64,000 nucleotides of DNA from an uncultured Coriobacteriia bacterium. GTDB lineage: Bacteria > Actinomycetota > Coriobacteriia > Anaerosomatales > PHET01. The notes under the pieces are model-generated. The model worked only from the letters and a program-made list of their open reading frames with translations, did not search any database and was not told the DNA's origin. The position numbers and the translations under genes are program-made. The stretch spans positions 5,122 to 69,121 of the forward strand of contig CAVVUM010000005.1 of assembly GCA_963751505.1 (NCBI GenBank), in the 5' to 3' direction. Below, in pieces: positions 8,074 through 48,810 of the stretch (positions are counted from its first letter, which is position 1; every line of letters starts with the position of its first letter).

Positions 8074-9015
8074 TGTTGATCGCGCTCTCCGCCCCGGCAG
8101 TCGCCGCGGCGGCTGAGTCGTCTTCGACGGCGACCGCGTCTGCCGAGGCGAGCCGCACCTACGACCTCGACTTCACGCTTCCCACGGCCGGCAAGTCGGG
8201 CTGCATGGTGTGCCACGGCGACCCGAACCTCGTGAAGCTCAGCTCCGAGAGCACGTCTTCGATCTTCATCGACCCGGCAGTGCTCGCGAACACCGCTCAC
8301 GCCGACACGGTGTGCACCGGCTGCCACCTCGACTTCGCCTACCAGACGCCCCACCAGAACGTCACAGCCGGCGCCACGTGGGTCGACGTTGCCAAGTCGG
8401 CGTGCAAGAACTGCCACTCCAACGAGTTCACCAAGTCGTCTCCGGGGCGCACTCCCCGTCGGGTGAACCGGGGCAGACGGACGAGGAGATCCAGGCCAAG
8501 CGACTCGCCGAGGGCAAGCCCCCCGTGACACCACTTTGCGGGGATTGCCACGGTTCTCACGAAATCTCCTACATCGACGTAGAACGATGGGAGAATCGGG
8601 GACCGCCGAGGTGCAACAGGCCGCGCAAGACGGTGCAGCTGCGATGCACGGGACCGGCGACGAGATGTGCGGCAGTTGCCACGAGGACCAGACCACGACA
8701 TACGCGGACTACTACCACGGGGCCGCGTACCGCGAGGGAGCGCCGGACGCGCCGGCGTGCTGGGACTGTCACGGAGCGCACGAGATGCTGCCCGCGAGCG
8801 ATCTGAGGTCGCCGGTGAACCCGGCCAACCTCGAGGAGACCTGCGGCAAGTGCCACGACGATCCCAACGAGGACTACGTGGAGTACGCGAAACTCGTTCA
8901 CAGCAAGGAGCAAGTCGAAGAAGAGGTACCGCTCTACACGATTTGGGAGTCGGCCAGAGCCGCCGTCGACGACGCGATCCAGACGGTGGGCTCGTGGTTC
9001 GGGGGCGAAGGGTAG
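8040..9015 (+). CDS. Secreted multiheme cytochrome c, 7 CxxCH motifs (frameshifted)
   Basis: Signal peptide; CMVCH, CTGCH, CKNCH, CGDCH, CGSCH, CWDCH, CGKCH. Confidence 0.88.
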
Positions 9016-9055
9016 CAGGGGGCCTGTGGGCCCCCCGCGGAAGGGGTAGGTAAGG

Positions 9056-10382
9056 ATGGCGCTACGACTACAGAGCACGCACCGGTAGGCTGCTCGCCAT
9101 CGCTCTTGGCGTCGCTGGCGTTCAGCGTCGCGCTGAGCGGCGGCGTCGCATTCGCGCAGGACCAGGAGTTGCAGCTCGACCCGGCGACTTTGCAGCAGCT
9201 GTTCCAGCAGCTGCAGTCCTCGCCGGTCATCGAGCAGACCTGCAGCGGGTGTCACGGCAACATCGCCGACACCGACAACTACTCCTCCGAGATCATCTTC
9301 ACGCACGCGAACCACATCATGCTGCAGTGCTCGTCGTGCCACACGCGCTTCCCGCACCGCCCTGAGGGCACCTCGCGTCCCACGATGAAGGGCTGCTGGG
9401 ACTGCCACGGGCTCACCCACGGTCCGATGGGCGAGCTCGCCACCGGCGAGTGCGAAGACTGCCACAAGACGCCCAAGGAGCGCCTGCGCCCCGCATTCCA
9501 CGGCTACGACTGGGCCGGCAAGCCGCACGTCGCGCCCGCGAAGGAGGCGTTCAACACGCGCTGCGCGATGTGCCACGACCCCGCGTCCTGCAACGACTGC
9601 CACGAGCAGAAGGCGATCGAGTGGACTCCGGACAGCTGGGGCTACGACTCCAACGGCGGCTGCCTCTCGTGCCACGGCAACCCGCTGCTCCAGAAGCAGG
9701 GCCTCGCGGGCGGCAAGTCGTTCCAGGTCAGCGGACTCGAGGAGTCCGTGCACCAGGACCTGACGTGCCAGAAGTGCCACACCGACTTCAACTACGAGGG
9801 CACCCCGGGCGCCACGCCGCTGTGGACGATCAACGCCAGCATCGCGTGCGCCGACTGCCACAAGAGCCCGACACGGGTGACGCCGAGAAGGACAAGAAGC
9901 TCTCCGAGCCGGTCGCGCTCTACAACAAGTCGATCCACGCCACGGCGCTCAAGGACGGCAACACCGACTCGGCGACGTGCGGCTCGTGCCACGGCGGCCA
10001 CTTCATCTACAGCACCGACAACGCGCTCGGCGCCGCGCGCATGCACGGCTCGTCGTACCGGGTCTGCGCACGCTGCAAGCAGCACGGCGACGAGTACGAC
10101 ACCTACGACGACTACTACCACGGCAAGGCCTACAAGGCCGGCGCGCCTGATGCGCCCGCGTGCTGGGAGTGCCACGAGTCCCACGACATCCTGCCCAAGA
10201 GCGACCCCGAGTCGAGCGTGAACGCGGCGAACGTCGGCGAGACCTGCGGCCAGGAAGGCTGCCACAAGGGCTCGAGCGAGGAGTTCGGCACGGAGGCTGC
10301 TGCTCTGATCCACCAGAAGGCACAGGCCCAGCAGGACAACCCGCTCCTGCGCCTCATCGCCAACCTGACCGGCGGCGGCTAG
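9056..10382 (+). CDS. Secreted multiheme cytochrome c: 11 CxxCH, one CxxCK(QH) and one Cx4CH (frameshifted)
   Basis: Signal peptide AFA-Q; CSGCH, CSSCH, CWDCH, CEDCH, CAMCH, CNDCH, CLSCH, CQKCH, CADCH, CGSCH, CARCKQH, CWECH, CGQEGCH. Confidence 0.88.
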
Positions 10383-10418
10383 GCCCGCCACCGCGCGATA
10401 GGAGGCCTGCGGCAGCCC

Positions 10419-12062
10419 ATGCGCCGCATCACCGACAAGCGAACAGTGATCTGGGGGGTGGCCGCGATTATTGCCGCGGCCGCCTTCCTGCTTGCGACCG
10501 CTGTCGCCGGTGACGCCGTGGAGAGCGACCAGCAGACGAGCGCGTCAGCCGAGGCGACGACCGCGCCGGTCATCGACACCGCTGCGCCGATAGAGCCGAC
10601 CCAGTGCGCGCCCTGCCACCTCGACCTCGGCAACGTGACCCAGCCGGGGCTCATCTTCAGCCACGGCAACCACATGCTCGTGAGCTGCGACGGCTGCCAC
10701 GCCCGGATGCCGCACCGCGGCAGCGGGACCGAGACCGTCCCGATGGAGGTCTGCTTCACCTGCCACGGCATCGCGCACGGGCCGCAGGGCGAACTCGCCT
10801 CGAGCGAGTGCCGCGACTGCCACACCAAGTCGTTCGTGCTGCGTCCCAAGACGCACACCGAGGACTGGAAGGCCAAGCCGCACGCGGACAAGGCCAACAA
10901 GACCGGCGTCAACGACTGCATGATGTGTCACGACGCGCCCAAGGACTGCGACGAGTGCCACGAGAAGGAGAACGTGGACGTCGGCAAGATGCCGGATGCG
11001 TACCACTCCCTCGTGCAGCCTCGCGACAAGGGGCCGTCGGTCAAGGTCTACCCGGACGGTCCCGTCTCGATGTCGCAGTGCCAGTACTGCCACCCCGACC
11101 TCGACGAGATCACGCCGGGCCGGCTCATCTTCGCCCACGGCGCGCACCTGCGGGCGCAACTATCGCTGCGAGGCGTGCCACACCGAGTTCGCGCACCAGG
11201 AGAACGGGACGAGCAAGCCCGACATGATGTCGTGCTACCGGTGCCACAGCGTCTACCACAACGGCGGCGGTCAGATCGCCGAGGGGCAGGACTGCTACAA
11301 GTGCCACCCGAAGTCCTTCGAGCTCATGCCCAAGGACCACACGATGCCGTTCATCAAGGGCGAGCACGGCAAGAAGTCGAACGAGGACCCCGCCGTACTG
11401 CGCGATGTGCCACCCGTCCGAGTTCTGCGTCGGCTGCCATCGCGGCGAGAAGGTGAGCCCGAACGCTCCGGGCAAGCCGGTCATCCCCGACGATCACAAG
11501 AAGGCGGCGTGGCGGCACCAGCACGGCGGCCAGTACCTCGCCGGCGAGGGTGCGTGCGGCTCGTGCCACGACGGACCCGTCGTGCAAGCGGTGCCACAAG
11601 ACCGTCATGCCGCACCCCGTCGGCTGGCTCGAAGGACCACTCGCCCGAGCCGGGCACGACGCACCGAGGACTGCAACATCTGCCACACGGACCGCAGTCC
11701 AAGTGCCAGAAGTGCCACCACCAGAACGTGCGCAGCGCGCCGAGCTCATCGAGAAGAACTGCACGCCGTGCCACGACGAGATGAAGCAGAAGCCGGCGAC
11801 CGAGATCAAGAACAAGGGCTTCGCCGAGCACGCCGTGCACTTCGACGTCGCAGAAGAAGAAGGGCAAGCCCTACAAGTGCGACGAGTGCCACGTGGACTT
11901 CGGCACGTCGCGCGGCGGCAAAGGAGCTCGAACTGCAGCAGGGGCACGACCTTCGCTTGTGCTACGACTGCCACGGCGCGCTCGACCCCTTCAACAAGCA
12001 GATCGCCCCGTACAAAGGCGCGGCGCTGTGCGTCCGTTGCCACAAGGACGTCGGACGTCTAG
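10419..12062 (+). CDS. Membrane-anchored or secreted multiheme cytochrome c, ~20 CxxCH motifs (several frameshifts)
   Basis: N-terminal hydrophobic helix; CAPCH, CDGCH, CFTCH, CRDCH, CMMCH, CDECH, CQYCH, CEACH, CYRCH, CYKCH, CAMCH, CVGCH, CGSCH, CKRCH, CNICH, CQKCH, CTPCH, CDECH, CYDCH, CVRCH. Confidence 0.87.
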
Positions 12063-12130
12063 CGGGATCAGCGGCGCGACCATGCGCGCTGACGTCACGA
12101 CGAGAGACACACAGAGGAGTACACACGCGC

Positions 12131-14948: not shown

Positions 14949-15244
14949 ACCTGACCAGCATCGTGCAATTGGTACCCACGAAGGAGGGTACTGGGAATAG
15001 ACCACCGGGTTGGAGCCGGCACGAAGACCCGACTGGTCAGTTGACCCTCACCCGATCCAGCACTATCCGTAGCTCCGGTCAGGGTCCTGCCAGCGACTTC
15101 ATTCGAGACGCCGTCTCCACCCGGTCTCCCGCACTGCGGGCCAGAGGAGGTGGCGTTTCTTCATATACCGCAGCTGGGAGAGAGAAGTTTGAGCACGTGG
15201 GCTTACCTGTACTGTTCATCGAGCCAAGTGAAGGAGGAGAGAGT

Positions 15245-16596
15245 ATGGCCATAACCAGGCGACAGTTCGTCACCCGTTGGGTGCCCTTGCTGCCGCCGTT
15301 GGCATGAGCCAGGCCGAGGTCTCGAAGATCACCGAGGCCTTCGCTGGCAACGGCACGACTGCTCGGCGGCACGCTGCGGCAAGCCGAAGGTCGTATGGGT
15401 CCACGGCGCTGAGTGCACCGGTTGTTCGACGTCACTTCTGGGCCTCTTTGAGGACGTCGGACCGGCAAGGCGATTCGAGGGGTACGGCGATCACCACGTC
15501 GGCTGCAGCGCTGCGGTCTCGCGGCGTGAGTCATCCGACGGCGCTCGACGCAGCGGCTGCACCATCGGACTCACGCTCTCGAGTGGCGACTCGTCAACGC
15601 CGATCGACGGCCAACGCGTGAACATCGCGGACGTCGTTGTCGACTTCATCGACCTCAGTATCACGAGACCGTCATGGGCATGGGCGGCGACCTCGCGGCC
15701 CAGTGGCTGGAGGACTTCAGCGACATGCGCCGACACGACACCGAGCCGTTCGTGCTCGTCGTCGAGGGCGCGGTCCAGGACAAGACGCACGGCGGCGCGT
15801 GGAACGACGACCAGCGACGCGCAGCGTGCCGTGGTGCTCGATCGGCATGTCGGCGACGACGGCGGACCGCTCGAGCACGACATGCCCGAGACGTCGTCGC
15901 GACCTCGCACAAGGCCAACTGCGTGGCGATCATCCCGATCGGCCAGTGCGCCACGCTTCGGCGGCTATCCCGGCTGCAAGCCGCCGATCAGCGCCACGCG
16001 CCGACGGGCTGGCGGCTTCAACCCGACGCAGTCGCAGACCGGCGCCATGGGCATCTACGACTACCTGCTCGCGCACGGCGCACTGCCGGCGCGCGCCGAC
16101 AAGGTCATCAACGTTCCGGGCTGCCCGACCAACCCGTGGTGGTTCGTCCTGACGGTCGTCGCTGGCTCGTCGACCTGTCGACCCGTCCGCTGGTCCGCTC
16201 GGCGACGTGCTCGGATCCTGCACGGCTCGCAGGCATCGACCTCGACCGCCGCCGACTGCGACCGCCGCCTCAAGGCCGTCTACCCGACTCCGATCCACAG
16301 CCCGTACTGCCCGCGCTACCGCGACTACGTCAAGGGCGTGTTCGCCGCGCAAGCCCGGCGATCCCGGCTGCCTGCAGAAGCATCGGCTGCAAGGGCCCGT
16401 CGACCAACTCGCTGTGCGGCACGCACGGCTGGAACAGCCAGCAGCCGCAGAACAGCCGCGATGTCAGCCGGCAGGCGTCTCCGCTCAGCCTGCAACGGCA
16501 ACAAGCCGGCGGCCACTGCACGCCGGCTGGCCATCCCTGCATGGCCTGCACCGAGAAGGGCTATCCGGACGCTTCGTCCCGTTCGTGGAGCGCTAG
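15245..16596 (+). CDS. [NiFe] hydrogenase small subunit with Tat signal (frameshifted)
   Basis: MAITRRQFV twin-arginine signal; VVWVHGAECTGC, VLVVEGAV, GQCA.FGG, INVPGCP, IHSPYCPRY, GCKGP, HCT.AGHPCMACTE. No C-terminal TM anchor. Confidence 0.9.
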
Positions 16597-16620
16597 AGAA
16601 GGAAAGGAGGGAAAAACTAG

Positions 16621-18657
16621 ATGGCTATACGATCTTACCGGTACTCGGCAACGATCACGAAGTCGACCCGATCTCACGTATCGAGGGTCACCTCGGCGTC
16701 AAGGTCGACGTCGACGCGGCGGCAACATCACCGAGGCCGACGCCCACGGTAACCTGTGGCGTGGCTTCGAGAACTTCCTGCTCGGCCGCGACGCCAACGA
16801 CGCGATCACGTTCACGCAGCGCATCTGCGGCGTTGCCCGGTTCCGCACGGCATGACGTCGACGTACGCGGTTGAGGCGTGCTCGGCTACAGCCAGCGGCC
16901 ACATCACGTTCTGCACGACGGACCGCCGGCGCCTACGGCGTTCCGCCGAAGGCGGTCCTCATCCGCAACCTGGTGCTCGGCGTCCGAGTTCCTGATGTCG
17001 AGCATCACGCACTTCTATCACCTGGCTGCGCCGAGCTACGTCCAGGGCCCGGCTATCCCGCCGTGGACCCCGTACTTCGCCGACAGCTACTACACCCGCT
17101 GCTTCGTCGAGCCCGCGGTCGGCGCTGACGGCACGGCGCCGCTGCCGGCGTCGTTCCGGACGCCGATCTGGCTCCGATGCACCTCTGGGCCGCGGTCATC
17201 ATCAGTACGTCAAGGCTCTCCGCATCCGCCGCCTCACCTTCGAGGCCGGCGCGCTGTTCGCGGGCCGTATGCCGATGACCTCGTGCTTCGTCGCCGGCGG
17301 CGTCACCCGACAGGCGCACGAGGACCTCGACGGAAGTGCAACAAGTTCCACGACGATCATACGCGAGATCGGCCACTTCGTCATCCAGGAGTACGTGCCG
17401 ATCGTCCTGGCGCTCGGGCGTCCTGTACCCGGACTTCGACAACCTGCAACAACGCGGTCCGACAGCTCGACGGCTCACGATCGCGCACGGCTGCGGCTAT
17501 GGCTGCGGCGCCGGCCTCGGCAACTTCCTCGCGTGGGGCGCGTTCCCGAGATCGACGGCGACGCTCCCGCACCAACGCGCGCTGCGCTTCGCGAGCGGCA
17601 TCTTCAGGACGTCACGGCTCGCGGGCCCGAGCAACTTCACCGTCGTCAACAAGGCCGAGGTCTACGGCAAGTTCCTCGAGCGGCCGCTGCCATCTCGTTC
17701 CGGCTGAACCTGCACCGAGGACATCGCGCACTCCCGCTACGCCGATCACGACGTTCGACGACACCGGCGACGGCTACATCGCCGTCGACGGCACAGCACG
17801 CGCTATCCGGGCGACGTCTCCCGCACCGAAGCCGACGCGCTGACGACGGGTACACGTACATGAAGGCTCCGCGCTGGAGCGGCAACGCCATGGAGGTCGG
17901 CCCGCTGGCGCGCTGGTCGTCGACCGGCCACTATCCCGTCGACGGCACGCACGCTCGCCGACGGTACGTCCCAGGCTACACCGGACATCGTACCTCAACG
18001 GCGGCGCGACGCTCGACATCGCGCGTCCTCGCGGACCACGACTCGTCCACGGCACGATCGTCACACTCCGGGCCACGCCGCCTCTCGGCGTACCGGCGAG
18101 CGGCGCTACATCGGTGCATCGCCGTGCATCACGAGCCTGGACTCATCGCCATCAAGGGCGGCCTGTCCACGATGGATCGCCTCCGCGCTCGTGCGCTCGA
18201 GTCCTCGTCCTCGTCCAGCGGATGATCGGTGCGTTCGACCAAGGCCGACCGGACCTGCGCAACAGCTCAGTTCGCCGACACGGCTGGGTCGACCAGCTCA
18301 AGGCCGCGGCTGGGCGCGGCCTACATACATCGAACAAGCCGATCCCGCCGGTCAGCATCACAGGGCTGGGGTGCACCGAGGCTCCGCGTGGTGCGCTCAT
18401 GCACCATGTGCACCACAACACGGCAAGATCACGGCGTACCAGTGCATCGTGCCGACGACGTGGAACGGCTCGCCGAAGGACGCCGCTGGGACGCGGCGCC
18501 ATCGAGCAGGCCATCATCGTGCCCCGTTCGCACGACGGCACCACTCCAGACGCATCCGTGCGCAGGCGGCTGCGCCAGCACCGCATCGGTCGGTGGCGTC
18601 GAGGCCCTGCGTATCGCCCAGTCCTTCGACCCGTGCATCGCATGCGCGGTACACTAG
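16621..18657 (+). CDS. [NiFe] hydrogenase large subunit, group 1a-like (frameshifted)
   Basis: DPISRIEGH, RGFE.FL.GRD, L1 motif QRICGV(C)PVPHG across an indel, HFYHL, YMKAPR, EVGPLAR, EAPRGALMH, YQCIVPTTWN, L2 motif SFDPCIACAVH*. Confidence 0.92.
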
Positions 18658-18675: not shown

Positions 18676-19932
18676 TTGAAGAGACTCTACTCTCGTTCTT
18701 CTCGCTGTTCGCGCTGTCCTCCTCTTCGGCGGCGTGGCGTACGCGAACTTCGGTCCGCACGGCGGATACTCGACGACACCGACTCTTGCGCCGGTTGTCA
18801 CCGGGCTCACACGTCGTTCTCGACGGTGACGTGGACGACGGCACGGCAACGAGCACAGCGCCGTTGCTCTGCTCGTCGCTCGGCGGCGACGATGAGGAGT
18901 TCTGCTACGCGTGCCACGGTGACGCCGCACCTGGCGCGTCGACGAACGTCTGAGCGGCGTCGTTCGACGCCGGCCCCTCGGGCGACTCGGTCACGGCATC
19001 TGCGCGCAACGGCGGCGTCATGAAGGCCTACCGACGGACTCGACGTTCAACGCGGCCCTCAACGGCGGCGGCTTCGTTCATGCTCCGACTCGTAAACTGG
19101 GAGACCAGGCGACTGCGCTTCGCGCCGGTCACGTCGATGCACAACATGGATGCCGGTCGGCGATCTGTGGGGCGACGGTATGCGGTTCCGACCCCGACCA
19201 TGAACCTGACCTGCACCGACTGCCACGACCCGCACGGCTCCTCGAACTACCGCCTGCTCAAGGACGAGGTCAACGGTATTCCGTAGGTGGCTACACCCGG
19301 GCGACGTGCCGGAACGGTCGTCTCCTCGGCCGAGACCGGCTACACGACGGCCGGGCGGCGGCTGGCTCAAGCACGAGGCTGGCCACCCAGATGCAACTAC
19401 GTGCCGAACTACACCGTCGGCAGCTCGCAGATCCGTGCTGGCAGCGCTCGGCAAGACCATCTCGACGTGGTGCGCGGCATGCCACCAGGAGTACGACAAC
19501 CGACAAGCGCCTACAGCTACGGTGACTACGAGGGCGGCTGACCGGTACGGTCGGTCGCGACCCGTCATCGCCACCCGGTCAACATCACGCTCGTTCAGCG
19601 GCGAGGACGTCTTGCAGATCGATGCGCCGGCTACGATTCCTCGATCGAGATGATACCGCTCGAAGTCAAGCCGAACGATCCGGCGTTCGTCGGAATCAAA
19701 TTGGCTGCCTCACTTGCCACTACGCTCATGGCTCCAGTGCGATATGACCGGTTGGTCGGCTGCCCAGCTGGAGAAGAACGACGATAACACGTGGATTCCT
19801 GTCCGCGACGACGGATCGCTGGCGTCAGCCTGACAAGAACGACGACCCTCAGGCCGCTGGTCTCCGAGCGGCACCAGCTCGCTCCTTCGCGCCGACAACC
19901 GCGGCGTGTGCGAACGCTGCCACGACAAGTAG
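18676..19932 (+). CDS. Secreted hexaheme cytochrome c with OmcS-like motif spacing (frameshifted)
   Basis: GGAGG RBS and signal peptide; GPHGGY..DTDSCAGCHRAH, FCYACH, CTDCHDPHG, WCAACH, RHPVN, GCLTCHYAHG, VCERCHDK*. Confidence 0.82.
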
Positions 19933-19976
19933 GGTTTCCCTGAACAACGACGTGGGCATGCATGATGCATGCTGAT

Positions 19977-20007
19977 GGGGGTCCCAGGATTACTCCCTGG
20001 GGCCCCC
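19977..20007 (+). terminator. GC-rich hairpin after the hydrogenase-cytochrome operon
   Basis: GGGGGTCCCAGG ... CCTGGGGCCCCC inverted repeat; weak U-tract. Confidence 0.5.
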
Positions 20008-20120
20008 TCATATTGGTGCGTGTCAGTTCGGCGGTGACCGCGTCTCCGCAGTACGATACGCATATCAGCGAAACCCAGCTATTGGAAGATGGTGATCCGG
20101 TTGTCCTTCGGTCTCCGACG

Positions 20121-21362
20121 ATGCCCAAGCTCCGGCAAGTCCCCAACCTAGCGCGCTACGCTTCGCTCGGCCTGATCGCGAACCCGTTCGCCGGTGCGCT
20201 GGGAGACCGGAGCCCGCAATGGCGTGAGAAATCCAGGCTGCGGGCAACAGGCTTCTGCAGGCGATTCTCGCGGCCTCGCAGCGAGTCCACGCCGAAACCC
20301 TTGTGGGTGGACAAGGATCCAGACATCCCTTCCTCGTACTCCCTGAATGCAGTGAGCCATGCGGAGGCGCTCGCTTGCAACGGATGACTCGCTCAACATC
20401 CTTTACGCGTACGTGCAGCTGTTCATGTTCAGGGTGGGTGTCACCCGGGCGACACTTGGCGTGGTCGCTCGAGCGGTTTCGCGTTTCGGGACATCGAATC
20501 CGTGCTCGCGCTCTACATCGAGCAGGTGCTCGCTGAGCCGGATCACGCCCTGACCTCCTATGCCGTTGTCGGCCCTGAACGGCTTGATGCATTTCGTCGA
20601 GGAGTTTCGCAACGACGTCGGGCGGTTGCGTGACGAGGGTGTTCGGCACGCCTGAGGTCGAGCGCCACGACGAGTTCATCGGCCTTGCGGATCCGCGCCG
20701 CGCGGATCTCGACGATGACGGAGACGAGCAGGACGAGTCGCCAGAGGTCGACGAGACCGTCGGGGACGCCCCGGGCACAGCAGCCCTTATCGCGGAGGCC
20801 CGCCGAGGTCAGCGATGAGTACGAGGGCGTGAGAGACTACCTCATCGAGTACACCCGGGCTCACATCTCGCCCGTGTTGGCGAGGGGGCTGCGGATGTAT
20901 CACGCACGCGGTCTCTCGGCGCTGTCCGAAGAGCTCAAGATTACCAAGGCGCCTCGCAAAACGCTGGCGAAGATCATTGACTGGGCGGAGATCCGCTACG
21001 CCAGGACCGCGCTGCTGTACGACGAGTTCGGCCACTGGCTGGAGATCGAGCCTGACCTCCGGGCGCAGGTGGTCGCCTCTATGACGAGCCTACGGTGGCG
21101 GCTCAAGGACTCTGCCGTCCTGGTGATCATGGCCGCTCCGGGCGAGGCACCGGAGCTTGAGGAGACGTTCGCCGGCGGTCGACGGATCGAGTGGCACTTC
21201 TCGAATCTCTTTACGATGCAGGAGAACCCGGACGCGCTCGATGCTGCGATCATCCGGGGCTGGATCGAGTCCGCCGCACTGCCTGATGAGGCGCGCCCTC
21301 TGTTCTCGGCGGATGCCGGGCGGACAATCGAGGCGGGCGGCTTCCGCCCGCTCGATGAGTAG
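20121..21362 (+). CDS. Hypothetical protein, possibly a degenerate P-loop/AAA-like fold (frameshifted)
   Basis: N-terminal YASLGLIANPF and Walker-B-like LLYDEF; no clear Walker A seen. Start uncertain. Confidence 0.45.
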
Positions 21363-22370: not shown

Positions 22371-22407
22371 CGCCCGAGTGACGCTCTAGACGTTGGGTAG
22401 GGTTCGT

Positions 22408-24221
22408 ATGAAGCGCATCCTCGCATTCCTGTTCTTGCTCGCGGCCCTTTCCGCATCCGCGCTGCCGGCGTTCGCAGCGTCGGACGACGCGATCCCGGGC
22501 GTTGTGGCCGCCAGCCCGATTGCGGATTCGCTCGACCAGTTCACCGACCTCCGCGACGTGTACGCGATCAGCCTGATGGCTGGGCAGGCCCTGAACGTGA
22601 GCCTCACCGGGTCCGCTGGAACCAACTTCGATCTTCACCTCATATAAGCCGGGCACCGCCTCGGCAGACTTCGTCAGTGCTGTGGCCACGTCCCGCAACT
22701 CCTGGTATCCGGATTCGATCTCGTACACCGCGCCCACGACAGGAACGTACTACCTTGAGGTGTTCGCGTACTCGGGCGCGGGTGACTACACGGCTACCTA
22801 CAGCAAGGTCACCCCCGATGCGGCGGCTGACAACCAGATCCCAGGTGTCGCCGCTCCTGCCAGCCCGATTACCGGCTCACTTGTGAAGAACGGCGGCGGG
22901 TCTTGGTGATGCCCACGACGTGTACGCATTCGACCTCTGGCGGGACAGCTCTTCACTGCGACTCTCACCGATCCGAGCACCGCGGAGTTCACCGACTTCG
23001 ATCTGTGGCTGTTCGGCCCCAGTGCAACGACTGTCAACGGCACTGCGGTTGCGGGTGCGGACGGCCGCTACTACCCGAACCGCATCGAGTACATCGTGCC
23101 GTCGAGCGGGACCTATTACCTTGACGTGTACGCGAATGCGGGCGCGGGCACCTACCAGGTCGCCTACACCGTGGGGGACCCTGCCCACCTACACGATTTC
23201 GACCTATGCGGGGCCTGGAGGCACTATCAGCCCGGTCTCGCCGGTCGTCGCCCAGGGATCGGACAAGACGTTCACCATCACGCCGAAGGTCGGTTACCAT
23301 ATCACCTCGCTCGTCATCGATGGCACACCGATCAACCCCAGCTCGAGCTACACGTTTTGGAACGTGACCAAGTCACACACCATCTCCGCGGTCTTCGCGC
23401 TCAACACCTACCAGCTGAAGTACACCGCAGGTACGGGCGGCTCCATCTCCGGGTCCGCCACGCAGGTTGTGGCGTACGGCTCGAGCGGCGCCCGAGTTAC
23501 GGCGGTGCCGGCCACGGGCTATCGCTTCGTCCGATGGTCCGACGGCAGTACGAGTGCTTCCCGCACAGACAGCAACGTACACGGCAACCTGACCGTCGCG
23601 GCAAGTTTCGCCAAGTCCACGTCGATCTCACTGACCGCACCCGCCACCTCAGACTACGCCTCGGCCAAGCTCTACGGCTATCTCAAGTACGGCTCGGGAA
23701 GTGCCCTTGCCGGTAAGCCGGTCGCGATCGAGCAGTACGTCGGTTCCGGGGCCTGGAAGAAGATCGCCACGGCCACCACCACCTCGAGCGGGTATTTCAC
23801 CTACACCGCCAAACCGACGGTCAAGACCGCGTATCGCGCCCGCTATCTCGGCGACAGCGTCTACAACGCGTCTGCCACCTCCTCGCGCTGGGTGCTGCCG
23901 AAGGTGCGCCTGAGCCGCACGAGCTCGTTGTCTACCCTCACCTACGCCAAGACCTACTACGCCACCGGCTACATCGAGCCGAGGCACTACTCGACCTCGG
24001 GCAAGGTGCGCATCTACGCCTACAAGCGCGCGAGCAACGGCACCTACTACTACAAGGCGAGCTACGCGGCGGCCTACAGCTACTACTCGGCGACCAAGAC
24101 CCGCTACAAGGCCGGGGTCAAGCTGCCGTCCAAGGGTGCTTGGAAGCTCGTGGCGTATCACGCCGCCGACAGCTCCAACGCCGCGACCTGGGGCAGTGCG
24201 GACTACCTGACGGTCAAGTAG
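22408..24221 (+). CDS. Secreted surface protein: two pre-peptidase C-terminal (PPC)-like domains, InlB-B-like repeats and a basic Tyr-rich C-terminal domain (frameshifted)
   Basis: Signal peptide MKRILAFLFLLAALSASALPAFA; twice DVYA...DFDL...TYYL.V.A; YRFVRWSDG repeat; K/Y-rich C-terminus. Confidence 0.7.
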
Positions 24222-24330: not shown

Positions 24331-27300
24331 GTGAACGCCCATCGGACTCGTGATCTGAGCACTCGGAAGGGAGTAGCGGCACTGACGCATCGGCCGGCCA
24401 CAGCATCACGCGCGTGGCACCAGAAGGCGGTCGCGGCAGCGGTCGTCCTTTCGGCGTTTGTGTTCGCCGCGCTGGGCTTCGCGCTGCTCGGAGTTTCCCC
24501 GGCGCATGCGGTGACCGTCTCGGCCACGGCTGGCACCGGCGCCAACGTCACCGGTATTGGCGCGATCCCGTGGTCGAACGCGGGCAACATCACCACTGTC
24601 GGCACGCCTTACGCGACCGTGCGTCTCGGGAATGCGGAAACAAGCAACTACCTGCTGGGCAACAACTTCGGCTTCAACGTACCCGCAACGGCCACCATCA
24701 CCGGCATCCAAGTCACCATCATGCGCCAGAGCAGTGCGGCCGCTGCACCGTACATCAGGGACAACGTGGTCAGGCTGGTCAAGGGCGGCACCATCACTGG
24801 AAGCGACTATGCCGCGACTACCACCAACTGGCCCGGCTCCATGGCCGCTGCCCCCCCCTACGGCGCTGCACCGGCCGACCCCCTGTGGGGCACCACCTGG
24901 ACGCCAGCTGATATCAACAGTCCCGGTTTCGGTGTCGTTCTCTCAGCCACGCACCCCGCCAACGGTGCCCCCCGAACGGCGAGTGTCGACTACATCCAGG
25001 TCACCGTGGACTACGCTCCGGATTCGACCAAACCCGATGTGGTGGTCAACCAGGCTGTTGGCCAGGCGGACCCAACCAACTCTAAGACGATCTCCTATGA
25101 CGTGGTCTTCAGCGAGCCAGTCACGGGCGTCGACGTGAGCGACTTCTCGGTCGGCGGAAGCGCTACTGGCTTCGCAGTATCGAGCGTGACCGGCTCAGGG
25201 AGCACGTATGTGGTCACCGCGAGCGGAACGACGGTCACGGATGGCACCGTCGCGCTGTCGATGCCCGCGGGCGGGGCACAGGATGCGGCTGAAAACACCA
25301 ACAATGCTTCAACCTCGGCCGATAGCAGCGTCACCTACGACGGTACGCCGCCCACGGTCTCGGTCACCGCTCCATACGCCGATGAGACGCTCACGGGCAC
25401 GGCAACCACCGTCGGCGGCTTGGTAGCCGATGCTGGCACCGGCGTTGCCTCGGTAGGCGTGGTCATCCAGTACACCGACGTTCCCAGCGCAACGACGTAC
25501 TACTGGAACGGAATAGGGTGGCAGACGACTCCCTACCTGAACCCGGCGACCATCACTGGGGCCAGCTGGGCCTACGACTGGGCGTTCAGCCCGGCGCGTC
25601 AGCAGCCGACAGGACGTACACCATCCAGGCAACTGCGGCCGACGCCGTTGGGAACGGCGCCACCTCGGCCGCGGTGACCGGCGTCACCGTGCACAACCAG
25701 TTCACCCTCACCTACAACGCCGGCCCGGGCGGCTCCATCACCGGCACCACGCCCCAGACGGTGAACCACGGGGCGAGCGGCACCGCGGTGACCGCCACGC
25801 CGAATGCCGGCTACCGCTTCGTCAGCTGGTCTGACGGCAACCTCAACGCCACGCGCACCGACGCCAACGTGACAGCCGACCTCACGGTGACGGCGACCTT
25901 CGCGATCAACACCTACACCCTCACCTACATCGCCGGCCCGGGCGGCTCCATCACCGGCACCACGCCCCAGACCGTGAACCACGGGGCGAGCGGCACCGCG
26001 GTCACCGCCACGCCGAATGCCGGCTACCGCTTCGTCAGCTGGTCTGACGGCAACCTCAACGCCACGCGCACCGACGCCAACGTGACAGCCGACCTCACGG
26101 TGACGGCGACCTTCGCGATCAACACCTACACCCTCACCTACCTCGCCGGCCCGGGCGGCTCCATCACCGGCACCACGCCCCAGACGGTGAACCACGGGGC
26201 GAGCGGCACCGCGGTCACCGCCACGCCGAATGCCGGCTACCGCTTCGTCAGCTGGTCTGACGGCAACCTCAACGCCACGCGCACCGACGCCAACGTGACA
26301 GCCGACCTCACGGTGACGGCGACCTTCGCGATCAACACCTACACCCTCACCTACAACGCCGGCCCGGGCGGCTCCATCACCGGCACCACGCCCCAGACGG
26401 TGAACCACGGGGCGAGCGGCACCGCGGTGACCGCCACGCCGAATGCCGGCTACCGCTTCGTCAGCTGGTCTGACGGCAACCTCAACGCCACGCGCACCGA
26501 CGCCAACGTGACAGCCGACCTCACGGTGACGGCGACCTTCGCGATCAACACCTACACCCTCACCTACAACGCGGGCCCCGGCGGCTCCATCACCGGCACC
26601 ACGCCCCAGACCGTAAACCACGGGCCGAGCGGCACCGCGGTCACCGCCACGCCGAATCCGGCTACAGCTTCGTCAGCTGGTCTGACGGCAACCTCAACGC
26701 CACGCGCACCGACACCAACGTGACAGCCGACCTCACGGTGACCGCGACCTTCGCGGTCGCCACCTACACCCTCACCTCTCGGCGGGCCCGGCGGCTCCAT
26801 CACGCCACTCGCCCCAGACGGTGAACCAGGGCGGCAGCGGGACCGCGGTACACCTCACGCCGGATCCCGGCTACCACGTCGCTGACGCTGGTTGACGGAG
26901 CGTCAAGGGCCCGCGCACCGACGCCAACGTGACGGCCGACCATCACGATGGCGGCGACCTTCGCGCTCAACACCTACACGATCACGACGAGCCCGGGTGC
27001 CAACGGCACCATCACGCCGCGCGAACCCGAGCGTTGCGCACGGTGCGAACCAGACGTTCCTCATCGTGCCCGAACGCTGGCTTCCACGTGGCCGACGTCG
27101 TGGTCGACGGGGTATCGCAGGGGCCGATCGGCACCTACACGTTCTCGAACGTCACGGCGGCCCACACGATCGCGGCGACCTTCGAGGTCAACACCTACAC
27201 CCTGACCTACACCGCCGGCACCGGTGGCACGATCACCGGCACCTCGCCGCAGACCGTCAACCACGGGCGGACGGCACCGCCGTCACCGCCGTGCCCGACG

Positions 27301-30300
27301 CCGGCTACTCCTTCGTGAAGTGGTCCGACGATGTCATGACCGCCACTCGCACCGACACCAACGTGCAGGCCGATCTGTCGGTGACCGCGATCTTCACGGC
27401 GAGCACCACCTACACGATCACGTCATCGGCAGGCGCGAACGGCTCGATCTCGCCGCTCGGCGACACGACCGTGCCTGAGGGCGGCAGCCAGACCTACACC
27501 ATCACGCCCGACACGGGCTACCACGTTGCGAGTCTCACCGTCGACGGCGCGCCCGTGTCGCCCGCGACCGAGCTACACCTTCACCAACGTGACGGCGGCC
27601 CACACGATCGCTGCGACCTTCGACCTCAACACCTACACCCTGACCTACACCGCCGGCACCGGCGGCTCGATCACGGGCACCACGCCGCAGACCGTCGACT
27701 CACGGCGCGGACGGCAGCGAGGTCACCGCCGTGCCGGACACCGGCTACACCTTCAAGAAGTGGTCCGACAACGTCATGACAGCCGCGCGCACCGACACTA
27801 ACGTGCAGTCGGACCTCACGGTGAATGCGGTCTTCAGCAAGCTGCCGATCACGCCCGGCGAACAGACGATTCCGCCGCACGTGGCCACCTCGGAGGACAC
27901 CGACGCGTGCGCCATGTGTCACCGGTCGCACACGGCGGCGTCGCAGGTCTCCGCGATGGGTGCGCTCGAGACCACGTTCAACGCGCTGATAGTCGGTGCG
28001 ATCTCGCCAGAGCAGGGCGACGTGCCGCTGTGCTACTCCTGCCACGGCGTGGACAGCCTCGGCGCGCTGACCGACGTGCAGACGGCGTTCGAGGAGCGCT
28101 CCTCCCACAAGCTCGCGCCCGAGACCTCGGACGTACGGGCCCGAGAACAAGCAGTGCAGCTCGTGCCATGACAGCCACGGCACCGAGAAGACGGCCGAGG
28201 GCGACCCCTTCCCGGGCCTGCTCAGGAGTCGTGACGCGAGCGACCACGTCGTGATGAGCGGCGACGAGTACTGCACGTCCTGCCACGACCAGAACATCAA
28301 GGGCGCGCTGGGACGGCATCGAGATCTGGCGTCAGACCGCGCACGTCGACCTGACGCCCACCGTGTCGGGCACCGAGGTCGTCTGCTCTGTGTGCCACGA
28401 GGCGCACGGCTCGTCCAACACCGCGCTGATCCGCACGACGCTCACGCCGCCGTCGGTCGAAGACACCGTGGCGGTTCCGGGCAACGATCGCTGGCTCTGC
28501 TACGCCTGCCACCCCGGCGGGCTCGCGACGTACTCGGGCGGTCTCACCTACGAGGCCTCGACCCACGGCTCTTCCGATGCGACCGTCGCCATCACCACCG
28601 AGTGGGCGAAGCGCTTCCCGGCCGGTTCCGCCGAGACGAGCCGCGCGGCAGGGGAGTGCCAGGTCTGTCACGCGGCCACCGGTCGCAACGACGGCACCGG
28701 TAAGCCCTACCCGAAGCTGCAGGACGCGGTCGGCCCGGCGCTCTGCTACCGCTGCCACGACCGGGGCTCCACCATCGCGAGCGACGTCGCCTCTCTCTAT
28801 CCGACGACCACCGCCGACGTGCCCGAGGTCATCGCGGCCTACGGCGCGTCGCCCACGACCCAGCAGTTCTCGCTCGTGCAGGTCTACTCACGGGAGTCGA
28901 GTGCTGTCGGCCGGTCTCCCCTCGCCGCGACAGGCGATCGAGGGCACCGTCGGGCCGATGGCCGCCGGTGACATCGACGGCGACCCGCGCGCCGAAGCCG
29001 AGGCGATCGTCGTGCGGCCGGGCGGCGTCGGTGTTACGGTCCTGCGCCGCTCAGCACTTGCGGGTCTGACCGAGACCTCGGCGAATCTGCTCGCCGAAGC
29101 GTCGTATGTCGCCATCGGCGATGTGCTGAGCGACACCGGCGACCTGAACGAGGTCGTCGCCGCCACCGACAACGTCGTTCGCGTCTACCGCTGGAGCGGT
29201 TCGACACTGACGTTCGTGCCGTCCACCGCGACCACGGTGAGCGGCACCATCTCGGGCCTCACGACCGGCGATGTGCTCGGCACGGATGGTGACGAGATCG
29301 TGCTCACCACCAACGCGCCCGACCAGCTCTACATCATCGACGGCGGCTCGGGCTCGCTCTCCGTGAACGGCCCCTACGCGACTCAGGCGTTGCCCAAGGG
29401 TCCGTCCGTCGGCGATCTCGACGGGGCCGCCGACGACAAGGGCGAGATCGCGGTCGCCTTCTCGGGCGAGGCCGTCTCGCCGATGGTGGGCATCTACGGG
29501 CCGACCGGCAGCTCTCATCACCAGCGCAGGGGCGACCGGCGGAGGCGAGAGGCGAGCGCAGCGTGCGCTGATCCGTGACGTCCTGTGGGGGACCCAGGCG
29601 GCGGGTCGCACGCGGGCCGAGGTCACGGTGAGCGTTGCCGACCCGGTCGACGGAGCCGCCGACGGGGCCCGCGTCGATGTCTTCCCGCAAGACACCGGCA
29701 ACGACCTGGCTTCTGCCGTCTCCTACTCGCTCCCGGCATTCAGCAACCCCGCCGAGATGGACACCGCCGACATCGATGGCGACGGCCACAAGGAACTGCT
29801 CGTCGCCCGCGCCGGCTCGCGCGTCCAGACCGCGACGCCGAATCCCCCGGGCTGAGCGCGGTCAAGACCAACGGCGACGGCACCGCTATCGCCGGCGACA
29901 CGTTCTACCAGGCGGCCGGTATCGAAGCCGCCGATTCGGGCCCGGGTTCCGCCTGGGTCGCAGCGGCCGAGATGGGCGACGTCGGCGCCTCGAAGCACGC
30001 CGTAGGCGCGGTGGAGGACACGCACGTCTCGACCGAGACCGCGTCGTTCGAGCGTCACGTCGAGTGTGTGGACTGCCACAACGTCCACGAGGCCACGAGC
30101 ACGCCGGCGCCGGCTCCACTCGCCTACGGCGCCATCAAGGGCACGCAGGGCGTCTCTGTGGCCAACTCGCCCGCGGGCCAGATCACCTACACGCAGAAGC
30201 CGCGCATCGACAACGAGTACGAGCTCTGCATGAAGTGCCACAGCGGCTGGTCGGCCTCGACAGACACCCGCAACATCGCCAAGGAGATCGACACGCGCAA

Positions 30301-30810
30301 CGCTTCGGTTCACGCGATCGAGGAGACCTCGACGACCAGCAACGCGACGGCCGGCTCGTTCGTCTCCGGCTGGGGCAACGACTCGGTCCTGCACTGCCGA
30401 GACTGTCACGGCACCGCGGACAAGACGGCTGTCCAGGGCCCGCACGCCTCAGATCAGGCGCCACTGCTCGTGAAGCCCTACTGGGGTGTCACGCCGAGCG
30501 ACGCCTCGCAGCTGTGCTTCGACTGCCACCGCCGCGAGGTGTACTTCACCGGCGCCGAGGACGGCGTCCCTGCCTCCACGAGCCGCTTCTACAACGACTC
30601 TGGTGCCGGGGCGCGCCAAGCTTCTGCACAGCTGGCACACGCAGACCCAGGGCAGGAGCTGCTCGGCCTGTCACGTCACGCACGGCGGGACCGTCAAGGC
30701 GCTCCTCCGCGTCGGACGTCGGCTACACGGTCGCGGTCGACGGGAACGGCGGCTCGTGCCTCAACGGTTGCCACAACGGCGACTCGCACGCGTACGCGCC
30801 CAACCCCTAG
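24331..30810 (+). CDS. Giant (~2100 aa) surface multiheme cytochrome c with Ig-like domains, tandem InlB-B-like repeats, ~14 heme motifs and an FG-GAP-like propeller (many frameshifts)
   Basis: Signal peptide ..PAHA-V; Ig-like (FSEPVTG, DGTPPTVSVT); 71-aa repeats; CAMCH, CYSCH, CSSCH, CTSCH, CSVCH, CYACH, CQVCH, CYRCH; GDIDGD/GDLDG/ADIDGDG repeats; CVDCH, CMKCH, CRDCH, CFDCH, CSACH, CLNGCH. No new RBS plus signal peptide seen between segments, but a split into two genes cannot be excluded. Confidence 0.72.
25704..26980 (+). repeat. Tandem direct repeat, 213-bp unit (71 aa): five near-identical copies and one degenerate copy
   Basis: Unit starts (ACCCTCACCTAC) at 25704, 25917, 26130, 26343, 26556 and ~26768; encodes TLTYxAGPGGSITGTTPQTVNHGASGTAVTATPNAGYRFVSWSDGNLNATRTDANVTADLTVTATFAINTY. 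Confidence 0.97.
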
Positions 30811-38226: not shown

Positions 38227-39399
38227 GTGGAGAGGGCGAACGTGACCGAGAACCTGAAGGGTGGCACTCGCAGGCGACTCGTTCTGACGATGGGCGGCGT
38301 GGGACTGGCCGTCGGCCTCGTGTTCCCGCTCGCAGCGCGGCTGCTCGTCGAGCCTCGCAGCACCGGAGCGCTCGCGCTCTTCTGGGGGCTCTGCGTGCTC
38401 GCCGGGGTGGGCGTGGGAGTAGGCTGTGCTCTGCTTGCCGAGAACGTCGGCGCCGGGATGTTCCGATCGGTCCTGCTCGAGGCGCGGGAGCGCTACGGCA
38501 TGCAGGTTGAGACCGAGGGGGACGGAGATGCCCTGCAGCTCGAGGTCTTGCGCCAGTTCGCCGAGGTAAGCGAGGTCCTGCGCCAGGCGGGCTCGGTCAA
38601 CCGCGATCTGCGCGCTCTGACAGCACAGGTACTCGCCGCCACAGAGCAGCAGGCATCGGGCGCGGCGCAGCAGGCCGCAGCGGTCACGCAGACCTCGGCC
38701 ACCGTCGAGGAGCTCGCGCAGACGTCGCGGCAGATCGCCGACAACTCGAAGGCGGTGGCGCTCACGGCCGAGCACACGCTCGCCAGCGCAGAAGAGGGCA
38801 TGCAGGCGGTCATCGACACCGCCTCCGGCATCGATGAGATAGGCGCGAGCACCGAGCTCGCCTCCGATCGCATCCTCCAGCTCGGCGAACGCAGCCAGGA
38901 TATCGGTCGCGTGCTGGTCATCATCGACGACATCGCCGAGCAGACCAAGATCCTGGCCCTCAACGCGGCGATAGAGGCCGCGCGGGCAGGAGATGCTGGA
39001 CGAGGATTCGCAGTCGTTGCCGAGGAGATCCGCAAGCTGGCCGACTCGGTGACCGAGTCGACCTCGGAGATCGGCAAGGTCGTGAGAGAGATTCAGACCA
39101 GCGCAAGCTCCCTCGTTATGTCGACCGAGCGCGCCCGCGCAAAGGTCGATGAGGGCCGTGGGCTTGCACGTCGCACCGCCGACGCACTCGACCGGATCGT
39201 GAGCCAGGTCGAAGATACCACCGATGCCGCCAAGCAGATATCGATAGCGACGCAACAGCAACGCACCGCCTCTGAGCAGGTCGTTCTCTCGATGCGCGAG
39301 ATGACGCAGACGTCGCTATCAGGTGCAGACGCATCGCGCCAAATCCAGACGGCCATCGCCGAGGTCGACCGGCTCGCAGACGCCGTGCTCGTGCGCTGA
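38227..39399 (+). CDS. Methyl-accepting chemotaxis protein
   Basis: Two N-terminal TMs; [37 protein letters not shown]. Confidence 0.93.
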
Positions 39400-39574
39400 T
39401 CGCTGCGACAGGCGGTCCTGCGTTCGTGCAGGACGCGCGCGCGACTCGTCGAACTCCCCAAGTGAACGGCGTCCTTCTGTTGTGGGGGCGTTAAGATTCT
39501 TATATTGTTCTCGTGGCGGTGCCTGGCCGCCGATTGTGTCGTGGGTGGGCGACTCGAAGCAAGGAGAGATGCAA

Positions 39575-41814
39575 ATGGCGAAGATCTCCCTGGCCGGATT
39601 CAAAGATCCGGTCCGGCGGCCGCGGTACATCATCTGGGCGCTCGTTGCGGTCCTCGTGGTGGCCGGGGTCATGGTCCCGGTCCTGGGAATCACCTCGACC
39701 AGGTGGTTCTGCGCCGAGGGCTGCCACAAGGTGCAGGACGACACGATCCTCGCGTACGAGGCATCCACCCACTCCGAGATCAGCTGCATGGCGTGCCACA
39801 TGCCGGTGAACGCCAACCCCGTCGTCTTCCTGCTTCACAAGGCCGAGGCGCTCGGCGAACTGTATCTGACCGTTCGGGACGACTTCGAGTTGCCCCTGAA
39901 CGCCGAGAGCGAAGTCGCTCTCACGATGGCAACGAAGCAGTGCACCCAGTGTCACAACATGCCGAACCGCATCGTTACGCCTAGCACCAGGCATCAAGAT
40001 AGAGCACGAGCCGCATGCCGAGATCAACGCCGCGTGCCCTGTGTGCCACAACCGTGTCGCCCACAACGAGAACTTCGAGCTGACACTCACCGATCCTCAA
40101 ACCGGAGAGCCCAACCAGAAGCACGCGAACTTCATGACGATGACCGCGTGCTACCGCTGCCACGGTCTCGAGAAGGGCGCGGCCGCTCCTGGACGCTGCC
40201 CGGCCTGCCACACTTCGGACTTCACGCTGAAGCCGGACAATCACAACGAGGCTACCTTCAAGCGCCAGGGTCACGCAGAGATGGCCAAGGAGGCGCAGGC
40301 CGAGGTCGCGAAGGCGAAGGCCGAGGCGGCAAGCCCCGAGGGGGAGGCCGAGACCTCCGAGCAGGAGGGTGAGGCCGAGAAGCAGAACGAGACCCCCAAG
40401 GAGGAGAAGCAGTCCGAGGAGACCTCCTTCCTCGGCGTCGAGAAGGCCTACGCATCCGGGGGCGGGGAGGAGTCTGCACCGTCCACCAAAGAGGATGTGC
40501 CTGAGGTCATCGCTGCTCAGCGAAGCCACGGTGCCGATGACTCCGAGTCGATCGGCGAGGAGTTGCCGCCGGTGGACACGATCTACTACTGCGGCACCTG
40601 CCACCTCGAGACCTTCTGCACGAACTGTCACGGCATGGAGATGCCGCACCCCGCGGAGTTCAAGGAGCCGGCGAAGCCCACCGATCCTCAGGGCCACCCG
40701 GTCATCTCGAAGGCCAAGCCCAAGAAGTGCGTCATGTGCCACGGCGAGAACGAGAAGACGCACTTCTGCGACGAGTGCCACCACGGCACCCAGGCCGGCG
40801 GATGGAAGTACGATCCGAAGGTCGCCGTGGACTGCCAAGCAGCACCCGCAGGCCGTCGCAGCGGGCGGCGTGAAGGCGTGCACCGAGAAGTGCCATACCG
40901 CCAAGTTCTGCGTGACGTGCCACACCCAAGGCAAGGTCGTACCGACCTCGCACAAGCAGAAGAACTGGACCAAGCCGAAGCCTCCGGGAGCCCTGACGAT
41001 CTACGGCAAGCAGCCCGCGAAGGTCAGCGCGAAGCACGCGCTCGATGCGCAGACCTCGATCGAGAGCTGTGCCGTGTGCCACGGCGAGGGCGGTCCGAAC
41101 GCGAAGTTCTGCAAGAGCTGTCACAAGCTCGAGATGCCGCACTCGGCAGAGTTCAAGAAGCAGCACGTGAGCAGCAAGAAGAACAAGAAGCAGTGCCAGA
41201 ACTGCCACCTCTTCAAGGAAGTGTGCAGCAACTGCCACCACATCGACTCGTCGCTGACGAAGCCTTGGATCAAGGTCCACGGTGGGTCCGTGAACAAGAA
41301 CGGCGCGGCGGGTTGCGTCGAGAAGTGCCACACGAAGGACGACTGCGTGAAGTGCCACACGAGCCGCAAGGTCGTGCCGGACTCCCACAAGGCGAAGAAC
41401 TTCGTGAGGAACTACTCGAGCAAGGACGCCAAGCACGCCGAGCTTTACAAGAAGGACGGCGACACCTGCACCTACTGCCACAAGGGCGCGGCTGCCGAGT
41501 TGCCGAACTCGAAGTTCTGCAAGGGCTGCCACAAGCTCGAGATGCCGCACAAGATCGATGACGGCAGCAAGGAGAAGTTCCCGCACAAGGAAGGCTTCGA
41601 GAAGAAGACCTACAAGAAGGCCCAGTGCGCGAACTGCCACAAGACCTCGTTCTGCGACAGCTGCCACCACGAGGCGTCCGTTGCCGGCAAGCCGTGGGTC
41701 CGCTACCACCCGAACGTGGTCAAGAAGGACGGAGCCGATCCGTGCTTCGAGTGCCACGAGGAGACGTACTGCTCGAACTGCCACGTCAACCTGGCGAAGC
41801 GGGGGTTGCAGTAG
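39575..41814 (+). CDS. Membrane-anchored NapC/NirT-like multiheme cytochrome c, ~24 heme motifs (two frameshifts)
   Basis: TM helix, then TSTRWFCAEGCHKV..STHSEISCMACH; 21 CxxCH and 3 CxxxCH counted by eye. Confidence 0.86.
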
Positions 41815-48476: not shown

Positions 48477-48552
48477 CGCAGGTGGTACGCTAGCCTGCGG
48501 CGACAGCCGGCGCCGGTGATGGCCGGTTACCGAATTCGACGTAGGAGGAGTC

Positions 48553-48810
48553 ATGGCGCATTTTCGGTCTGCCCGGCAGGACAGGAGCTCTGGATCATCC
48601 TGGTGGTCGTGCTGCTGCTCTTCGGCCCCACGCAGCTCCCCAAGCTCGCCAAGATGTTCGGCAAGTCGGCGAAGGCCCTCAAGGAGGGCATGGAGGGCAA
48701 GCTCGAGGACGACGACGACGATGACGGCGAGACGAGACCGCCGCGAGCGACGCCAAGGCAGAGGCGAAGGCCGAGACGCCGTCCGAAGACGAGGACGCCA
48801 AGCGACCCGG
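48553..48810 (+). CDS. tatA: Twin-arginine translocase TatA (3' end uncertain)
   Basis: ELWIILVVVLLLFGPTQLPKLAKMFGKSAKALKEGM. Confidence 0.88.

Follow-up and report, generated by a model that had tools for sequence, protein, structure and literature searches.

A predicted secreted 14-heme cytochrome with a probably looped-out propeller and a long adhesin-like arm, possibly docked on an OmcS-type wire, in an uncultured Coriobacteriia bacterium

In a 64,000-nucleotide stretch of DNA from an uncultured Coriobacteriia bacterium (contig CAVVUM010000005.1 of GenBank assembly GCA_963751505.1; hereafter the window), positions 24331-30810 very likely encode one giant multiheme protein of about 2,150 amino acids (aa), which combines an arm of adhesin-type repeats with 14 heme motifs and an FG-GAP beta-propeller. 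Judged from motif order and from comparison with relatives, the 14 heme sites are likely to form one continuous chain from which the propeller is looped out. The protein probably takes part in extracellular electron transfer, as a first-pass annotation made from the letters of this DNA had proposed. As a whole, our best explanation is that a secreted 14-heme chain is docked on an OmcS-type wire and carries a swappable adhesion arm, and we give this combined reading a little less than an even chance.

The target region was delimited on the forward strand as follows. A predicted Sec signal peptide (24331-24510; cleavage after AHA was placed by eye, and the start is uncertain, the first being a GTG at 24331) is followed by a beta-rich domain without a Pfam family (24511-25020), which was defined by sequence comparison with relatives and an Atlas search, then by a bacterial Ig-like domain (Big_12, 25021-25320; Pfam E 1.3e-5, under the curated cut-off) and by a second Ig-like domain (25321-25697; recognized by tblastn, with one frame switch near 25590). 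The arm proper consists of ten InlB-B-type modules with a period of 213 bp, eight of one type and two of a second (25698-27840). It leads into a Pro-rich linker with hemes 1-8 (27841-28812), a propeller of ~385 aa (28813-29978), whose borders were mapped via the structural model of an intact ortholog (L021), and hemes 9-14, made up of five CxxCH and a terminal CxxxCH (29979-30810). The first group of eight CxxCH motifs lies at 27908, 28031, 28155, 28272, 28384, 28498, 28657 and 28744, and the second group of five at 30065, 30227, 30395, 30515 and 30660, with CLNGCH at 30757; base shuffles of the region (n = 200, three forward frames) gave a mean of 0.11 CxxCH and a maximum of 2. Pfam families matched in the target were Flg_new_2, the divergent InlB B-repeat (E 3e-61; over its cut-off, with 204 bits across five stretches of one fragment, plus other fragments), FG-GAP_3 (E 3e-9; 37.9 bits against a cut-off of 26.9) and Paired_CXXCH_1 (E 9e-12). 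Matches of the repeats to SpoVAD, NDK and ATP synthase models were discarded as artefacts of repetition. The features that the first-pass annotation had listed, from the signal peptide and about ten InlB-B modules through the eight CxxCH and the FG-GAP region to the final five CxxCH and CLNGCH, were thus all located. At the DNA level, identity to module 1 is 98.5-100% within modules 1-4 and 95% for module 5, and this 95-100% identity across modules 1-5 points to a recent tandem expansion. Module 6 (~26760-26960) is garbled and resembles a hybrid of both module types, so that the repeat count of ten is provisional and may shift on polishing.

As assembled, the target is not a single open reading frame (ORF). 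Its motifs are spread over three frames, and at least 15 frame switches are needed, one in the Ig domain, at least seven in the repeats and seven in the core. These switches and the garbled module 6 would suit readings other than one functional gene, namely two genes for an adhesin and a cytochrome, a pseudogene in decay or an error in assembling the repeats, as would the facts that the fusion of repeats and cytochrome was seen in no relative and that reads of this strain were not found in the one run checked. Such a reading is nevertheless very improbable, since the neighbouring hydrogenase, NHL-repeat and hexaheme genes upstream are just as broken, none of the 14 heme motifs is damaged in the assembled target, and the junction from repeat 10 to heme 1 lies in one open frame without a signal peptide; none of the five domain junctions tested, this one included, carries a stop. 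Moreover, contigs of close relatives from one run (share 0.05; relatives mostly at 85-95% identity, not this strain) show single-base indels at 27568, 29509, 29831-29845, 30616 and 30714, each in the direction demanded by the target's frame switch. The core is also intact as a single ORF in relatives, with 46 distinct cores among 52 ORFs gathered from Coriobacteriia. With the neighbours broken too, the junctions in frame and the core intact in 46 relatives, a single protein is the expected product, and the frame breaks are very likely assembly (likely sequencing) errors. A giant, predicted secreted multiheme made as one protein with an FG-GAP propeller, as first proposed, is supported by the frame evidence, Pfam and the AlphaFold model described below.

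The heme sites had been described as two blocks around the propeller, a division that did not survive comparison with relatives. In other phyla, 58 propeller-free 12-heme relatives have the C-terminal block in common with the target family, and they bridge the junction that matches hemes 8 and 9 in 46-49 aa, versus 422-463 aa in the Coriobacteriia proteins and about 430 aa in the target itself. A profile of these 58 relatives picks up again right past the propeller, at position 266-269 (277 in two), in every one of the 29 intact orthologs; 21 of these are also matched over hemes 7-8, to position 251-262. By heme spacing and profile, target hemes 7-14 correspond to hemes 5-12 of the 12-heme relatives, and the propeller is inserted after the heme-8 motif, ahead of the conserved His that comes next. 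As the propeller sits in one loop of a continuous cytochrome, two separate heme blocks are not supported, and hemes 8 and 9 are very probably in contact.

The inserted domain itself is well defined. In the AlphaFold model of L021 (mean pLDDT 74.5, pTM 0.71), residues 317-700 form a confident closed propeller that matches seven-bladed propellers, including integrin alpha, with Z 25-30, and closure of the ring brings entry and exit together, as an insertion requires. The closest solved folds include carbohydrate- and protein-binding propellers; among the best Foldseek matches are the UmbA4 entry of Streptomyces (9oee, E 7e-10), described as bound to TUA, which we take to be wall teichuronic acid, and fungal GlcNAc lectins, all at 10-17% identity, a level that informs on fold and not on ligand. 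In the eight orthologs printed, one to four loops per protein match a loose DxDxDG-type motif, and many are degenerate. Toleration of a 385-aa propeller inside the heme chain, together with long arms at both ends, suggests that conduction and attachment are modular in this family.

In the first-pass annotation, the repeats were taken as a stalk that projects the heme domains past the cell wall. In such a model the N-terminus would hold to the wall and the ten modules would lift the cytochrome outward to a mineral, perhaps with tethered diffusion like that of PgcA. The arm is indeed real and fused, and tethered heme domains do exist, as in PgcA (PMC11520253, partial text). In addition, a second multiheme giant in the same genome carries the same repeats after its hemes. 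However, InlB modules are present in none of the 46 intact cores, and in 42 of these, which lack a long N-terminal extension, heme 1 follows soon after the signal peptide. The stalk is accordingly dispensable, and the arm is an add-on of the target genome that the family does not need. Neither a lipobox, a helix nor a known wall-binding domain was seen at the target's N-terminus, where no Cys follows the signal peptide, and the arm shows no anchor motif either. The linkers of PgcA are flexible (PT)x repeats, not folded modules. A heme-free rod of ten modules, by our estimate tens of nm long, would also insulate hemes placed above it from the cell. With the domain order of heme-free relatives pointing the other way as well (see below), a spacer that lifts the hemes is not supported, and we consider it improbable.

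Comparison with surface proteins of relatives favours, by a narrow margin, an outward-pointing arm that serves as an adhesin or tethers the protein to a surface, a matrix or a partner cell. Two relatives have heme-free surface proteins whose N-termini match the target's N-terminal domain and its Big_12 unit; in them the N-terminal domain occurs in tandem at 45-51% identity. One of these two proteins is complete and ends in a ~186-aa domain, as does the gene directly upstream of the target. Of 31 genomes, 25 have this shared C-terminal domain, most of them with 7-22 copies. It is the very last part of the chain in 28 of the 29 proteins inspected, and in heme-free proteins it comes after InlB repeats or target-type N-terminal domains. 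Such a pattern makes it a candidate wall-anchoring or sorting domain of the lineage, an assignment drawn from position and copy number for a domain that bears no family name, which tells against the outward reading. In the heme-free relatives the N-terminal domains thus lie opposite the presumed anchor, and in the target the cytochrome takes the anchor's place, which would leave the arm distal. Among the 29 orthologs checked, none has the shared C-terminal domain, an LPxTG motif or a C-terminal helix, and neither a membrane helix nor LPxTG was found at the end of the target protein; the only anchor-like motif in the 29 is a lipobox-like string in one.

Long extensions vary among the relatives. 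N-terminal extensions of 550-1,090 aa (Ig, fn3 and BNR types) occur in 4 of the 46 intact cores, and C-terminal extensions in ten; the target's second Ig domain matches, by tblastn, extensions ahead of the cytochrome in the intact orthologs L025 and L041. Eight orthologs (L028, L036, L037, L042, L044, L045, L047 and L053) carry a beta domain of ~140 aa at the C-terminus, with a weak GH114_assoc match, and ortholog L030 has tandem Ig-like repeats at its C-terminus instead. The shared C-terminal domain, of which one copy lies next to the target (23661-24218), is Tyr/Lys-rich and nearly always last in its protein; an Atlas search with this domain returned only unnamed clusters as top matches. For the N-terminal domain, the nearest Atlas clusters are unnamed and mostly of tailed-phage proteins (cosine 0.95-0.96, low recognition score), a hint that phage surface proteins share the domain. 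The second giant lies on contig C6 at ~48500-53500 (L156) and has 13 or more CxxCH, with beta-rich domains and then seven InlB-B modules on their C-terminal side. It indicates that InlB modules are used with cytochromes in this genome, and its arrangement would fit a cytochrome on a stalk better than that of the target.

A proposed partner is encoded upstream. The gene at 18680-19932 on the + strand (frameshifted in the assembly; start approximate) specifies an OmcS-like hexaheme cytochrome with six CxxCH. A profile of 16 hexaheme orthologs matched OmcS of Geobacter sulfurreducens (6ef8) in the PDB at E 1.2e-11 over query positions 14-366 of 382. In the 24 loci with at least 8 kb of upstream DNA, an intact hexaheme gene lies on the same strand 1.4-7.4 kb upstream of the 14-heme gene in 15 and a broken or edge-cut one in five more, and none was found in the upstream DNA covered in the remaining four. 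At the genome level, 36 of the 39 genomes with a 14-heme gene also have the hexaheme; these counts include kin that are not independent, so no co-occurrence statistic is given.

The two proteins also resemble each other at their N-termini. The first three hemes of the hexaheme matched the 14-heme protein in a profile-profile comparison with a probability of 99.7% and E 9e-26. Searched against 362 heme ORFs, the hexaheme N-terminal profile scored 31-61 bits on hemes 1-2 of the 14-heme family (55.7 bits for the target) and no more than 20 bits at the remaining heme positions, the hexahemes themselves aside. Both proteins start with CxxCHxxH, and the His after the heme-1 motif is invariant in the 14-heme family (27/27). 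That this likeness is specific and kept across the order suggests constraint. The residue that OmcS donates between subunits is presumably the His just after heme 1. In OmcS, one heme (heme 5) is ligated by a His of the neighbouring subunit (PMC6584659 and PMC9473688, partial texts). From these comparisons of sequences, the 14-heme protein may dock physically on the hexaheme polymer, for which we put the chance somewhat below even.

Several observations weigh against docking on the wire. The hexaheme was not found in 3 of the 39 genomes with a 14-heme gene, and a close 14-heme ortholog is missing from 13 of the 49 hexaheme genomes. The hexaheme starts at an invariant Asn directly after its signal peptide, and the 14-heme N-terminus tolerates long extensions; with one end fixed and the other taking long arms, the two N-termini need not be used alike. 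In structural comparison, hemes 1-6 matched OmcS with Z 5.7 (rmsd 3.8, 164 residues aligned), lower than the score for MtrA (7.7) and level with that for OcwA (6.0), and Foldseek with the heme 1-8 model returned nothing at E <= 0.001. Furthermore, the L021 model was built without hemes, its first 120 residues are of low confidence, and heme-heme distances are not readable from it. Finally, 16 conserved non-proximal His and one Met are available for 14 hemes, by which a donor is not singled out. Counting histidines as proof of a donor ligand was rejected, because the propeller-free 12-heme relatives likewise have surplus His.

These points bear on an alternative in which the protein is a stand-alone terminal reductase at the surface, held to the wall by the propeller acting as a lectin for wall glycopolymers, or loosely adsorbed like OmhA and OcwA. 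It would then draw its electrons from wall cytochromes through transient contact, and the likeness to the hexaheme N-terminus would record a gene duplication only. The propeller matches to UmbA4 and the fungal GlcNAc lectins speak for it, as do the scarcity of other anchor motifs in the orthologs and the surplus His, which are not diagnostic of a donor. In line with it, OmhA is a weakly bound surface reductase of a Gram-positive bacterium (PMC7829351, partial text), and in a model for Thermincola the surface reductase OcwA is proposed to be fed by a wall-spanning polymer of the OmcS homolog CwcA (PMC7911101, partial text). On the other side stand the specificity of the N-terminal likeness and its retention across the order, and the low identity at which the propeller matches show a fold and not a ligand. 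We regard the stand-alone reductase as rather unlikely.

In the docked-chain explanation that we prefer, electrons from the oxidation of H2 or formate would pass to the quinone pool and from there to membrane multihemes (cytochrome b, encoded at 7156, and a NapC/NirT-like protein, encoded at 39323), which would feed an OmcS-type polymer of hexahemes within the wall. Via its N-terminal hemes, the 14-heme protein would dock on this polymer, lengthen the chain and hand electrons to an outside acceptor, and the propeller and arm would hold the complex to a surface, matrix or cell and carry no electrons. A narrower form of this proposal, which we consider doubtful though slightly less so than the stand-alone reductase, is that the OmcS-type nanowires of Gram-positive Coriobacteriia have the 14-heme protein as their end-piece. 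Here the subunit's N-terminal docking segment would have been copied, the chain continued for 14 hemes and polymer growth stopped, and the end would bear interchangeable modules for binding (the propeller in every protein; Ig, fn3, BNR or carbohydrate-binding-like ones in some; the InlB arm in the target), much like pili with tip adhesins or anchor pilins.

The current may run to Fe(III) or from an outside donor. In a reverse arrangement, which is compatible with the docked-chain explanation, the chain would draw electrons from reduced minerals, metal or a partner cell and feed an exported [NiFe] hydrogenase or the quinone pool. In agreement with this, genes for the hydrogenase large and small subunits lie upstream in 13 and 11 of 40 clustered loci, respectively, many of them short, and one cultured relative with 18 multihemes shows no Fe(III) reduction (PMC9686372, partial text). 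Against it, the cultured relatives are H2 consumers, and Fe(III) reduction is obligate in one of them (PMC9686372, partial text). We therefore rate a reverse current as improbable, if marginally less so than the stalk.

Further redox genes lie around the target. The [NiFe] hydrogenase small and large subunit genes (15230-18657, +) are frameshifted and syntenic with the family; the hydrogenase directly precedes the OmcS-like hexaheme gene, an order repeated in relatives, and an orthologous small subunit opens with a twin-arginine motif. Between the hexaheme and 14-heme genes lies a conserved gene without a Pfam family (19962-21362), which is upstream in 16 of the 40 loci and whose product is possibly an assembly factor. 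It is followed by the gene for a heme-free surface protein (22393-24221, +), in which a PPC-like domain and a pair of InlB-B modules are combined with the shared C-terminal domain. Further upstream of the hydrogenase, 7156-12100 holds a cytochrome b561-type gene and several multihemes (38 CxxCH at 8202-12029), then TPR and NHL-repeat genes. Downstream, a NapC/NirT-like multiheme and a further multiheme (39323-41814; 22 CxxCH in total) adjoin a methyl-accepting chemotaxis gene at 38227.

The best named matches of the core are Coriobacteriia/Actinomycetota genome bins, from which the host probably belongs near the OPB41/Anaerosomatales lineage, and an ortholog of the C-terminal block (E <= 1e-35) is present in 39 of 61 genomes of the same order, the target's own included. 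A distant variant of 1,357 aa with 15 CxxCH and a ~430-aa heme-free gap with FG-GAP-like motifs occurs at L056:5933-10006 and L057:5770-9846, in genomes without a close 14-heme ortholog. In culture, members of the Anaerosomatales use H2 or formate together with Fe(III) or sulfur compounds, and their genomes contain genes for 17-18 multihemes (PMC9686372, partial text). Searches of the literature on FG-GAP multihemes, OmcS nanowires in Coriobacteriia, InlB-repeat cytochromes and OPB41 propeller cytochromes, which covered neither supplements nor most subscription journals, returned no description of the target family, and propeller or Ig terms were not found in PMC11492766. As the termination, anchoring and tipping of cytochrome nanowires are stated to be open (PMC13712944, partial text), the family is worth a test at the bench: it offers a concrete end-piece candidate, encoded near a wire subunit in a lineage with cultured members. 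The target's arm is the most extreme example seen, and since the family does not need it, the arm adds detail rather than a new principle.

Compared with known systems, the target would be a surface multiheme like those of Gram-positive metal reducers that shares a segment with OmcS-type subunits and belongs to none of the OmcS, MtrC/OmcA and PgcA groups. The upstream hexaheme is a full-length homolog of OmcS, which like CwcA of Thermincola is a hexaheme nanowire subunit. The 14-heme protein, in contrast, has the N-terminal CxxCHxxH but neither the six hemes nor the full-length homology of an OmcS subunit; it matches 6ef8 weakly in sequence (E 0.002, short local matches only), and its 14-heme core spans ~980 aa with an inserted propeller and variable N- and C-terminal extensions, versus six hemes in ~400 aa. 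It resembles MtrC, OmcA and MtrF of Shewanella as an extracellular-type multiheme with non-heme domains among its heme motifs. MtrC, a lipid-anchored protein with beta-barrels, operates on a porin. The target differs from MtrC and OmcA in lacking a lipoprotein anchor, and from MtrC in looping its propeller out of a continuous chain and in its Gram-positive lineage; its Pfam and NCBIfam matches to MtrC domains are weak and far under the cut-offs, with TIGR03507 (MtrC/OmcA decaheme) scoring 19-21 bits on fragments against a cut-off of 209, and it has 14 hemes, not ten. The best fold match of hemes 1-8 is MtrA. OcwA of Thermincola, with 9 hemes, and OmhA of Carboxydothermus ferrireducens, with 11 according to its entry title versus the target's 14, are surface multihemes too, secreted by Gram-positive Fe(III) reducers; hemes 1-8 match their folds at a middling level (Z 6.0 and 4.3, respectively), and a PDB sequence search with the whole core gave no match at E <= 0.01, OcwA and OmhA included. 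PgcA of Geobacter similarly joins heme domains to long non-heme repeats that extend its reach (PMC11520253, partial text), but it has three single-heme domains on flexible PT linkers, whereas the repeats of the target are folded and lie outside the heme chain, and its heme 8-9 spacer is a folded propeller with high pLDDT. Uncharacterised 12-heme paired-CxxCH cytochromes of Planctomycetota, Bacteroidota, Calditrichota and other phyla share 27-38% identity over the C-terminal block and differ in having neither propeller nor arm and other N-terminal hemes. InlB B-repeat proteins and the FG-GAP propellers of integrin alpha, fungal lectins and UmbA4 show the same folds, which in the target have become parts of a cytochrome.

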